NCBI GenBank assembly: GCA_000002435.2
Contig: CM018790.1
Length of the DNA stretch: 64,000 nucleotides
Direction: 5' to 3' (one strand)
Source: Giardia intestinalis
Taxonomy: Eukaryota
The position numbers and the translations under genes are program-made. Positions 40,730 through 43,828 of this stretch are shown piece by piece (the stretch's first letter is position 1; each line of letters opens with the position of its first letter). Below the pieces are notes generated by a model. That model saw only the letters and a list, made by a program, of their open reading frames with translations. It had not been told where the DNA came from and did not search any database.

Positions 40730-40844
40730 GGGCGTTGGCACCGGTTTCTGGGCCCTTCTTTCTCAGTAGATATCTGTTGCAAAAATTGAAAAACGCCGTT
40801 ATAACGTTTCAAGTCCATTTGGCACCAATAAGTTGAGACAAAAA

Positions 40845-41768
40845 ATGGAGCACGGACATGACGCCTCGGACCCCATTGAGGAGTACTTTTTGCCCCGGGA
40901 GAAGGTGAGCTTCATCTCTGTGGAAGGATATCAGCAGGTGAAACTGTTTCGCTCAATAAAGGATAAGAGTGGACCCTGGGTTTTGTTTCTTCACGGACTG
41001 ACTTTCTACACCGATATATGTGCGGCATTTCTCAACAAGTTGTCTCGCAAGCATAATGTGCTCTCCTTCGACTGGCCCGGGGTGGGCGGTACAGATCCTT
41101 CCCGCAACGATATCTACACTCCACAAGAATTGCTCGGCTTTGCAGAGAAAGTTGTTGAAGCAGCAGAGCCGGGCCTGCCTGGCAGAGGCCTCAGTATCGT
41201 TGGGCACTCTATGGGCGGGCTCATGTCCCTTATCTTAGCAACTCACTATCTAAAGCAGGGATTTGATATAAAGAACGTTATCATGCTCGCCCCGGCAGGA
41301 GTCAAGGTCCACAAGTGGATGACTCACAGGCTGCTCACCACTCCGATCATAGGCCCTGTTCTGAACTTCATTTTTAAGAGATTCCCAGACGCCACCGCGA
41401 AGCGCATAGTCTACGAAACCCGCTACAACTTCCATTACATGCCAAAGCATATGGAGGAAGCGCTGTGGGAGCCTTTCAAGAAGAGCATGCTTCGCGACAC
41501 GAGGGTCACCGCAGCCCGCACCCTTGCCTTTGCGCAGTTTCCCTGGGAAAACCACGAAGAGCTTTTTATAGAGTTGGATAGGAGTAAGGTTAATGCAATA
41601 GTCGTGCTAGCTGGGCGCGATGTCACCATAGATACCCCCGCCACAGAGCACTTCTTGCGGACCAAGTGCTCTTCTATAAGCATACAAGTGTACCCAGATT
41701 ATACTCACGACCTTGTGGCCTGTAACGCAGATGTCATTACGGAATATATTTCTGCCGTCTTGCCGTAG
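40845..41768 (+). CDS. Alpha/beta-hydrolase fold protein (paralog 3 of 3; ABHD-like).
   Basis: The track start at 40833 is TTG; the ATG is at 40845 (MEHGHDAS). WVLFLHGLTFYTD...NVLSFDWPGVGGTDP...LSIVGHSMGGLMSLILA...MLAPAGVK...FPWENHEELFIELD. Confidence 0.65.
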   Translation: MEHGHDASDPIEEYFLPREKVSFISVEGYQQVKLFRSIKDKSGPWVLFLHGLTFYTDICAAFLNKLSRKHNVLSFDWPGVGGTDPSRNDIYTPQELLGFAEKVVEAAEPGLPGRGLSIVGHSMGGLMSLILATHYLKQGFDIKNVIMLAPAGVKVHKWMTHRLLTTPIIGPVLNFIFKRFPDATAKRIVYETRYNFHYMPKHMEEALWEPFKKSMLRDTRVTAARTLAFAQFPWENHEELFIELDRSKVNAIVVLAGRDVTIDTPATEHFLRTKCSSISIQVYPDYTHDLVACNADVITEYISAVLP

Positions 41769-41946: not shown

Positions 41947-42876
41947 ATGGACATCCATCTCATTTACCCCTTAGATTACAGTTGGACTCAGATTGTTTGC
42001 GCATTAGAAGCCATCGGGATCCATGTTAGCAAAGATAAGAGTGAGGCGTTTTTAACGCTTTTTTCTGAGACAAGCCATCTTTCACACACGCAATACATGG
42101 AGACGACGTGCATCAGCTTCGACGCCCTTCCTCATGGTATCGGGGTGTTGCTATTCTTTCTCCCCGCAGACAATTATCTCGGAGAAGCCGTGCTCGCCAG
42201 AAACATAGGTACATTCATGCTTCTTCCTAGCCGTCTTTTTGTCATAGACCCCTCTTGCAGACGCCAACACTATCCAGCCCATAGAGATGCATCCAGTGTG
42301 GTGGGTGCCAACCTGTCTCCTATCCCCACATTCAGATTGCCCGACGACATTGCTCCGTTGAAGTGCTCCATCTGCTCGTACTTGGGCCTCGTCTTGCATA
42401 AGCGGGCCTTGCCCGACGTTGTACAGGCGTCCTCACTCTGCCTGCTTGTCTGGGAGTGGATAAGACGCTATGAGGAGACTGCGTCAAACGCTACAGTCGA
42501 GAGCATACGACACTTTGGCCGGCTTGTTGGGGGGAATCTCCGAAACGAGATGGTCTCCAGTGACCCAGGAGCTCGTGAGCAGGTGCAAGTACAGCTGACG
42601 ACCCTAGCAAACTTCGTTCGCAGCATTCTTCATAAGAGCTGCACAAATACTTCGATGATACTGGGCCACTGCACGCTAAAAGAATACAAGCTACAAATCT
42701 TCATTTACGTCAGGTACAGGCCAGCAACCTTTCAGATACTGCTGGGCCACATGCTTGCAAGCATTTGCTGGTCGTTCACGGGAAGCAAGGAGGACACAGT
42801 CGTTTGCAGCCAGGACAAGACACATCTCGCCATCTCTGTTCTACTGCATCGCCCGCCTAGCTCACCCCATGCTTAG
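41947..42876 (+). CDS. Hypothetical protein (309 aa).
   Basis: ATG start and plausible spacing to neighbours. No recognisable motif. Confidence 0.4.
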   Translation: MDIHLIYPLDYSWTQIVCALEAIGIHVSKDKSEAFLTLFSETSHLSHTQYMETTCISFDALPHGIGVLLFFLPADNYLGEAVLARNIGTFMLLPSRLFVIDPSCRRQHYPAHRDASSVVGANLSPIPTFRLPDDIAPLKCSICSYLGLVLHKRALPDVVQASSLCLLVWEWIRRYEETASNATVESIRHFGRLVGGNLRNEMVSSDPGAREQVQVQLTTLANFVRSILHKSCTNTSMILGHCTLKEYKLQIFIYVRYRPATFQILLGHMLASICWSFTGSKEDTVVCSQDKTHLAISVLLHRPPSSPHA

Positions 42877-42908
42877 ACGTCTAGTATTGCTATCGTCATT
42901 GGCGGCAC

Positions 42909-43079
42909 TCATGAAAGGTGTGCCTCAAACTCTTTGGACGCCTCTACAAGGTAGTTGCCAATGAACTCGATCGCGTCTTTGGGCTTTCTGCATATTGCCT
43001 CTGCAAATGCATTGGACAGCTGCTCACCAACTGCTTCGGTAAGATACTTAATCGTCGCCTGGTCAATCCTCGTGTCCAT
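42909..43079 (-). CDS. Small Dpy-30-motif (RIIa-like dimerisation/docking) protein, 56 aa. It is not in the ORF track because it is under 60 aa.
   Basis: Hand translation of the minus strand gives MDTRIDQATIKYLTEAVGEQLSNAFAEAICRKPKDAIEFIGNYLVEASKEFEAHLS*. The core YL...V...L...(10)...P.D.IEF...YL matches the Dpy-30 motif (YLdqtVvPiLlqGLaeLakeRPedPIeFLAqYLl). It sits in a 301-bp gap, 32 bp from the upstream stop and 98 bp from the next start, with an ATG start and a TGA stop. Confidence 0.55.
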   Translation of the reverse strand: MDTRIDQATIKYLTEAVGEQLSNAFAEAICRKPKDAIEFIGNYLVEASKEFEAHLS

Positions 43080-43177
43080 CTCTTTTCCCCAAGAATTTGA
43101 TATATGATCAATTCAATTTTTTTGTCACATAATTTATTTTAATTGCACTTGTCCATATTAACTTCATGCTTTTATGA

Positions 43178-43828
43178 ATGGAACAACTCGTAGTCCGGGA
43201 TATACAGGGAACGGAGGACCTCGAGGTGCTCAAGAAGAAGCACATCGCCCTGATAGTTAAGGACGGCATGTCCTCTGCGGCATTTTACAAGGTCTACAAT
43301 AGCATTTTGTGCCGCTATCCAGATGACCACGTCCTGCTCAATGGGGTGTTTTCCTTGCTGATGCTCATCCTGCTCGATATAGGTACAGAGCGACCGGAGA
43401 TACCACAGGATGACGCGCTGGTGGACACTGTTCACTCTTATTACAAGGCACTCCAGGGCACCTTAGAGTACAAGGAGTTTCTGTCGTCTCTGCGCTCCAT
43501 GCTCCCGTTCATCATGCAGCTAAATATTGATGCTGGTCGATTGTTTCAGATTATTCTTTTTCAAAGGACTCCGGCTGAGCTAAGGTATGAAACATTTGCC
43601 TCTGCAGAGGAGATTAGGGCCATGTGGGAATCGGATATCCTTTGCTTTGATTGTGGCGTGTACCTTAAGTATGGGAAGAGCGGTCATATATGTACCCATG
43701 CTCCGCAGCTTTCTGAACGGTTGTCCACAACCCAGAAGATTCAGAGAAACTGGGGTCCAGTGCGCTTTGAGTGGGTTGCAGAGCGGGTTCACGAGCCAAC
43801 CAACATCCCCTTTGTGCGAGTCGTCTGA
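43178..43828 (+). CDS. Hypothetical protein (216 aa) with a C-terminal Cys/His cluster (CFDCGVYLKYGKSGHICTH).
   Basis: ATG start. Possible small zinc-binding motif. No family assignment. Confidence 0.4.
   Translation: MEQLVVRDIQGTEDLEVLKKKHIALIVKDGMSSAAFYKVYNSILCRYPDDHVLLNGVFSLLMLILLDIGTERPEIPQDDALVDTVHSYYKALQGTLEYKEFLSSLRSMLPFIMQLNIDAGRLFQIILFQRTPAELRYETFASAEEIRAMWESDILCFDCGVYLKYGKSGHICTHAPQLSERLSTTQKIQRNWGPVRFEWVAERVHEPTNIPFVRVV

Follow-up and report, generated by a model that had tools for sequence, protein, structure and literature searches.

Dpy-30 domains form dimers that bind a single amphipathic helix. In the radial spoke of the axoneme, this helix (AH_D) belongs to the RSP3 dimer; it anchors RSP2 and RSP23 by their Dpy-30 domains, and the spoke neck and head depend on it (PMC3494852). 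Building of the spoke head by RSP2 requires the sequence that flanks its Dpy-30 domain (PMC3494852). Chlamydomonas RSP2, at 738 aa, contains a GAF-like region as well as coiled coils. DYDC1 and DYDC2 are about 175 aa long and carry a coiled-coil tail; in RSP2 and in both DYDC proteins, the Dpy-30 domain begins no more than about 10 residues from the N terminus. The COMPASS protein DPY30 and yeast Sdc1, which belong to the same Pfam family (PF05186), are very small and consist of essentially just the dimerization/docking (D/D) domain. Helix recognition by Dpy-30 domains is promiscuous, with the COMPASS DPY30 binding the AH_D helix of RSP3 in vitro (PMC3494852).

Stand-alone Dpy-30 proteins of the axoneme have been described before and hold nothing surprising for a cilia specialist. 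In Tetrahymena, small DPY-30 motif dimers sit on the TLP2 helix at the central-pair tip, and another one is found along the ciliary shaft (10.1101/2024.12.02.626492). In Giardia, both attachment and motility depend on the eight flagella. Giardia axonemes have canonical radial spokes (PMC4931700), and the Giardia RSP3 (GL50803_16450) is flagellar (PMC13322205). Two proteins encoded at other loci of the same genome, GL50803_27887 (UniProt entry A8B984) and GL50803_4538 (A8B430), which are compared here by annotation only, carry the name “Dpy-30 motif-containing protein.” According to GFP tagging, GL50803_27887 is axonemal in all four flagellar pairs, and GL50803_4538 is found at the plasma membrane and on the cytoplasmic caudal and posteriolateral axonemes. 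Giardia encodes at least three Dpy-30 proteins, the untagged one being the product of positions 42909 to 43079 of the window analyzed here (the whole 64-kb stretch of Giardia intestinalis DNA). This protein is not among the 608 proteins of the Giardia localization atlas. An alignment of 42 Dpy-30 sequences, searched at E ≤ 10, retrieved no second Giardia protein among the 120 matches listed.

The gene occupies the minus strand of the 301-bp gap (42877..43177) that separates GL50803_9504 and GL50803_9506, with the following features in and around it:

41947..42876, plus strand, GL50803_9504 (exact look-up, Giardia intestinalis WB)
42755..42964, plus strand, second overlapping ORF with a TTG start (from the ORF list)
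42877..42908, no strand, 32-bp spacer between the stop codons of the convergent GL50803_9504 (plus strand) and the Dpy-30 gene (minus strand), from coordinates
42909..43079, minus strand, coding sequence of the 56-aa Dpy-30 motif protein (UniProt A8BNI7), ATG...TGA, stop codon included
42918..43100, plus strand, antisense ORF of 60 aa with a GTG start, overlapping the Dpy-30 gene; spurious
42936..43052, minus strand, Dpy-30 domain proper (aa 10 to 48): helix, turn at the invariant Pro33 (RKPxD), helix
43080..43177, no strand, AT-rich intergenic region of 98 bp common to the Dpy-30 gene and the divergent GL50803_9506; presumed bidirectional promoter
43178..43828, plus strand, GL50803_9506 (exact look-up, Giardia intestinalis WB)

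Translation of 42909..43079 on the minus strand yields the 56-aa product MDTRIDQATIKYLTEAVGEQLSNAFAEAICRKPKDAIEFIGNYLVEASKEFEAHLS. An in-frame stop lies 12 codons upstream, and no start codon intervenes between it and the ATG. Both the coordinates and the translation bear out the earlier note on this DNA, which had read a 56-aa ATG...TGA ORF from the letters of the minus strand in the 301-bp gap. The note had placed the ORF below the length cutoff of its ORF track, but the gene is not unannotated: the exact protein is present in UniProt as A8BNI7 (A8BNI7_GIAIC), “Dpy-30 motif-containing protein,” and in the NCBI records of several Giardia assemblies, including identical entries from assemblages B, E, and A2 (EES98900.1, EFO64606.1, and ESU36720.1). 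The gene is therefore already known, being annotated as a Dpy-30 motif protein in several genomes of Giardia and other diplomonads. A literature search by accession found no paper that mentioned this 56-aa protein.

Orthologs under the same annotated name are found in Giardia muris (53 aa, 83% identical), Hexamita inflata (49 aa), and Spironucleus salmonicida (49 aa). Altogether, the diplomonad orthologs from G. muris, Hexamita, and Spironucleus are 48 to 56 aa long and 69 to 83% identical, and further unnamed relatives are present in sequencing-run assemblies. Across six diplomonad sequences, 32 alignment columns are invariant, including the stretches AVGEQLSNA, AEAICR, and DAIEFIG; the invariant core kept in the diplomonads reads YL..AVGEQLSNA.AEAICR.P.DAIEFIG.YL.

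The protein-coding status of the minus strand follows from comparison of the Giardia assemblages. The identical 56-aa protein is encoded on contigs of other assemblages in an unchanged gene order, and the 171-nt ORF differs from its counterparts by 21 nucleotides in assemblage B (GCA_000182405.1, locus L004) and by 14 nucleotides in assemblage E (GCA_000182665.1, locus L008). All 35 of these differences fall at codon position 3, and all 35 are synonymous in the minus-strand frame, giving, by Nei-Gojobori counting, a dN of 0 at a dS of about 1.1 for assemblage B and about 0.54 for assemblage E. The neighboring proteins, GL50803_9504 and GL50803_9506, are 73 to 83% identical in assemblage B and 85 to 89% identical in assemblage E, with many first- and second-position changes in their genes. 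The sequence upstream of the ATG of the Dpy-30 gene contains indels and is poorly conserved across the assemblages. On the opposite strand, the ORF at 42918..43100 has an internal in-frame stop and many replacements in assemblage B.

The alternative that this is a chance ORF in an intergenic gap, with either the plus-strand ORF as the real feature or no gene at all, could appeal to a length of just 56 codons and to the lack of a canonical AGTRAA poly(A) signal after the stop. It is refuted by the third-position-only, synonymous pattern of all substitutions in the two other assemblages, by the interruption of the plus-strand ORF in assemblage B, by orthologs in four diplomonad genera, and by a Pfam match over the threshold (see below), which together leave it next to no probability. 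The synonymous-only pattern, combined with the broken antisense frame, means that it is the minus-strand ORF that codes for a protein and that the plus-strand ORF is spurious. In sum, 42909..43079 on the minus strand is a genuine protein-coding gene of the expressed type, under very strong purifying selection, as the earlier note had proposed when it took the minus strand to be coding and dismissed the overlapping ORF at 42918..43100. A plus-strand gene at the latter position had been considered as a candidate in its own right and was rejected on the same two grounds, the interrupted frame in assemblage B and the exclusively synonymous substitutions on the minus strand. The same note had given both overlapping plus-strand ORFs a GTG start, which holds for 42918..43100 but not for 42755..42964, where the start codon is TTG.

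The Pfam search that the earlier note had suggested for this peptide returned PF05186 (Dpy-30) with a score of 26 bits, against a gathering threshold of 22 bits, and an E value of 7.4e-6. The match spans aa 10 to 48 and profile positions 3 to 41 of 42, thus covering the full motif, and precomputed PF05186 matches exist for the orthologs as well. This confirms the assignment to the Dpy-30 motif proteins. The additional label “RIIa-like” is applicable at the level of fold or clan only: hmmscan gave PF05186 alone, with no match to RIIa (PF02197) at E ≤ 10. In the six-frame translation of the window, there was a single Dpy-30 match, with a score of 77 bits, and the next one scored 7.4 bits.

The protein consists of a helix-turn-helix that is preceded by a lead of 9 residues and followed by a tail of 8. 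The AlphaFold2 monomer, modeled from the ortholog alignment, contains helices at residues 7 to 31 and 33 to 55 (mean pLDDT of 77) with a break at Pro33. This residue, located in the turn of the helix-turn-helix as is the conserved proline of other Dpy-30 motifs, is the only position that never varies when 42 diverse Dpy-30 domains are aligned. Fold searches with the two-helix monomer were uninformative. The 56-aa protein is little more than one D/D domain.

Dpy-30 domains of known structure come from both radial spokes and COMPASS, and the Giardia protein is closer to the former. In a search of the PDB with the single sequence, the best match was the N-terminal Dpy-30 domain of Chlamydomonas RSP2 (E value of 0.0025). 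With a profile of the diplomonad family, RSP2 was again at the top (E value of 5.5e-7, 32 bits), followed by DYDC2 from the human axoneme structure (E value of 0.0027), DYDC2 from PDB entry 8wzb (E value of 0.0048), and a second RSP2 chain from entry 9e5c (E value of 0.024); the matched DYDC2 chains are from human and mouse, at E values of 0.003 to 0.005. The Sdc1 and DPY30 chains from COMPASS came next, at E values of 0.08 to 0.8, so that all four radial-spoke chains ranked above every COMPASS chain in what is an unbiased test of type, resting on a 40-residue domain. Non-spoke axonemal Dpy-30 chains were absent from the results of this profile search at E ≤ 10.

An exhaustive search of 1.84 billion representatives with the same profile produced 44 matches at E ≤ 1e-3. 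In these matches, which are 50 to 700 aa long, the domain is found within the first 5 to 60 residues, mostly the first ten, with the exception of three repeat-protein false positives; the nearest relatives thus have the domain at the extreme N terminus, like RSP2. An alignment of the long matches, in turn, retrieved DYDC2, RSP2, and DYDC1 from the PDB at E values of about 1e-9, and it covered residues 9 to 366 of Chlamydomonas RSP2, well past the Dpy-30 domain, so the long relatives are members of the RSP2 family. The alignment profile was needed for this result, as PDB searches with two single long relatives (P0047 and P0078) found no RSP2 match.

Comparison with locally built profiles gave the Giardia protein 57.8 bits for the RSP2/DYDC type and 33.1 bits for the COMPASS type, a difference that is partly circular because the RSP2-type profile was built from matches to the diplomonad profile; the control, human DPY30, scored 32.5 and 104.9 bits, respectively. 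RSP2, the DYDC proteins, and the Giardia protein have in common the motif YL+xxVGxxLxxA...P.D.I[ED][FY][IL]G.[YW]L and the location of the domain, which in the Giardia protein, too, begins in the first 10 or so residues (its N terminus reads ATIKYLTEAVGEQLSNAF). The 20 named DPY30 homologs, which come from animals, ciliates, and cryptophytes, have a C-terminal domain with the signature LP[TI]RxYLDQTVVPILLQ. The Giardia protein lacks both this LPxRxYLDQTVVPILLQ signature and the C-terminal position of the domain, and has YLTEAVGEQLSNAF in place of the signature. By these sequence features, its domain looks like the radial-spoke RSP2/DYDC type rather than that of COMPASS DPY30/Sdc1. The protein has a Dpy-30 domain of the RSP2 sequence type at its N terminus but lacks the flanking coiled-coil or helical extension by which the RSP2/DYDC family contacts RSP3 and the spoke head: the polypeptide ends 8 residues past the domain, leaving 56 aa to compare with the 738 aa of RSP2 and nothing to match the tail of DYDC1 and DYDC2, and the diplomonad orthologs are equally short. 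The Giardia protein is a candidate RSP2 ortholog, as are the two other Giardia Dpy-30 proteins.

A 113-aa protein (P0051) from Aduncisulcus paluster, a free-living Carpediemonas-like fornicate, combines an N-terminal Dpy-30 domain of the same type with a lysine- and glutamate-rich coiled-coil tail. It is a possible intermediate between the long RSP2/DYDC proteins and the bare domain of diplomonads, and it suggests that diplomonads may have shortened an RSP2/DYDC-like protein.

By analogy with the solved Dpy-30 domains, two copies of the 56-aa protein, or one copy and another Dpy-30 protein, would be expected to pack as an X-type four-helix bundle, whose groove would clamp one amphipathic helix of a scaffold protein. 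Given the RSP2/DYDC sequence type, the likeliest scaffold would be the AH_D helix that the RSP3 dimer provides in the neck of the radial spoke, to be occupied either by a homodimer or by a pair with another Giardia Dpy-30 protein. Lacking an effector or coiled-coil extension, the protein would serve as a clamp rather than a tether, that is, as a structural clamp or stiffener of the spoke neck or as one half of a heterodimer. Our preferred reading, held with a little more than even confidence, is that the 56-aa protein is a D/D docking clamp for an axonemal scaffold helix, most likely that of RSP3 in the radial spoke. The earlier note had favored an axonemal docking subunit over a COMPASS subunit; the part of that proposal that concerns sequence type is borne out by the PDB ranking and the local profiles, while for dimerization, axonemal location, and the RSP3 partner, we infer the likely behavior from the described Dpy-30 systems.

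Promiscuous helix recognition by Dpy-30 domains means that sequence type leaves the binding partner unfixed. The protein might be a docking dimer of the axoneme or cytoskeleton outside the radial spoke, with another Giardia Dpy-30 protein serving as the RSP2 equivalent; the scaffold would then be a central-pair projection, a ciliary-tip complex, or a Giardia-specific axoneme-associated structure. Such an arrangement has its precedent in the stand-alone DPY-30 dimers at the central-pair tip and shaft of Tetrahymena (10.1101/2024.12.02.626492). Those proteins (TTHERM_00579000, TTHERM_00082260, and TTHERM_00158390), likened to the Giardia protein by description rather than by sequence, are small homodimers that clamp a ciliary scaffold helix, and they differ from a spoke component in residing on central-pair tip and shaft structures. 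It is also in line with the distinct axonemal patterns of the two other Giardia Dpy-30 proteins, either of which (GL50803_27887 or GL50803_4538) could be the true RSP2 equivalent, and with the fact that the 56-aa protein has none of the flanking sequence through which RSP2 reaches the spoke head, a lack that weighs against a spoke assignment. However, the closest solved structures are the radial-spoke chains of RSP2 and DYDC2, and the diplomonad profile recovered no non-spoke axonemal Dpy-30 chain from the PDB at E ≤ 10. A clamp outside the spoke is regarded as rather unlikely, although it is the most probable of the rivals.

A nuclear role is considerably less probable. The protein could in principle be the Giardia counterpart of COMPASS DPY30/Sdc1, forming a dimer on an ASH2L/Bre2-like helix and supporting H3K4 methylation. 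It resembles DPY30 and Sdc1 in being very short, essentially one Dpy-30 domain of the PF05186 family, and both would be expected to form dimers that clamp a single amphipathic helix; COMPASS DPY30 occurs widely in protists, including named homologs from ciliates and cryptophytes, the COMPASS-type profile still gives 33 bits, and the DPY30 and Sdc1 chains are detectable in the PDB. Nevertheless, the near-universal COMPASS signature is absent, the domain is at the N terminus and not at the C terminus, the COMPASS-type score is 25 bits below that for the RSP2 type, and all the COMPASS chains fall below all four radial-spoke chains in the PDB ranking. In addition, no evidence of a Giardia ASH2/Set1 complex was met in a literature search whose matches were mainly from yeast and animals and which was unproductive rather than negative.

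If the 56-aa protein does sit on RSP3, as in the preferred reading, it would offer a model of a minimal D/D clamp and a cheap target for tagging or knock-down in studies of spoke assembly. A more far-reaching idea, tentative and in our view rather doubtful, is that diplomonads have pared RSP2 down to a bare Dpy-30 clamp of 50 aa, resulting in a naturally minimized radial spoke. In that case, RSP3 would carry the neck and head of the spoke without the coiled-coil arm of RSP2 on which other eukaryotes depend, and the dN of 0 at a dS of about 1 would reflect the involvement of every residue in the dimer or helix-binding interface. Irrespective of its partner, the protein adds a third Dpy-30 docking protein, one of the radial-spoke sequence type, to the list of Giardia flagellar candidates, and it illustrates that an ORF of fewer than 60 codons that a length cut-off passes over can be a genuine gene under high constraint. 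What the present analysis contributes beyond the existing annotation is limited to this extreme constraint and to the assignment of the domain to the RSP2/DYDC type.

The layout of the locus is compact on both sides of the gene. The 98-bp region 43080..43177, which is presumed to be a bidirectional promoter, contains AT-rich blocks, such as AATTAAAATAAAT, that show partial conservation among assemblages A, B, and E; the remainder of the region has indels, as expected of noncoding DNA. At the other end, the poly(A) signal of Giardia is AGURAA and the median 3' untranslated region (UTR) is 59 nt long (10.1101/2021.04.06.438666). No AGTRAA hexamer is present on the minus strand within about 160 nt downstream of the stop codon of the Dpy-30 gene, the closest poly(A)-like hexamer being AGTAGA at 42845. 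Since AGTAAA and AGTGAA are missing in about 40% of Giardia genes (10.1101/2021.04.06.438666), this is not counted against the Dpy-30 gene. Around the convergent ends of GL50803_9504 and the Dpy-30 gene (42877-42908), neither strand has an AGTRAA hexamer. With the two stop codons only 32 nt apart and no hexamer nearby, the 3' UTRs of GL50803_9504 and the Dpy-30 gene must reach into the opposite gene, which makes a sense-antisense overlap between them obligatory.

Several minor observations concern the wider set of sequences. The 90%-identity cluster of the 56-aa protein includes a 667-aa bacterial UvrB-like protein (P0012), which is evidently a clustering artifact, and an 86-aa version from one run assembly (P0001), in which the ORF is extended upstream through the promoter region. 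Just upstream of GL50803_9504, on the plus strand at 40833-41768, there is an alpha/beta-hydrolase gene (Abhydrolase_1/6 in Pfam, by orthologous call in related loci), the start codon of which is uncertain: a TTG start gives 311 aa here, compared to 307 aa elsewhere and 346 aa in assemblage E. Finally, in the run assemblies of Giardia isolates, amino acid variants of the Dpy-30 protein are found only outside the domain core, namely, R4K and I5V in the N-terminal tail (P0009 and P0010) and A53T in the C-terminal tail (P0002).
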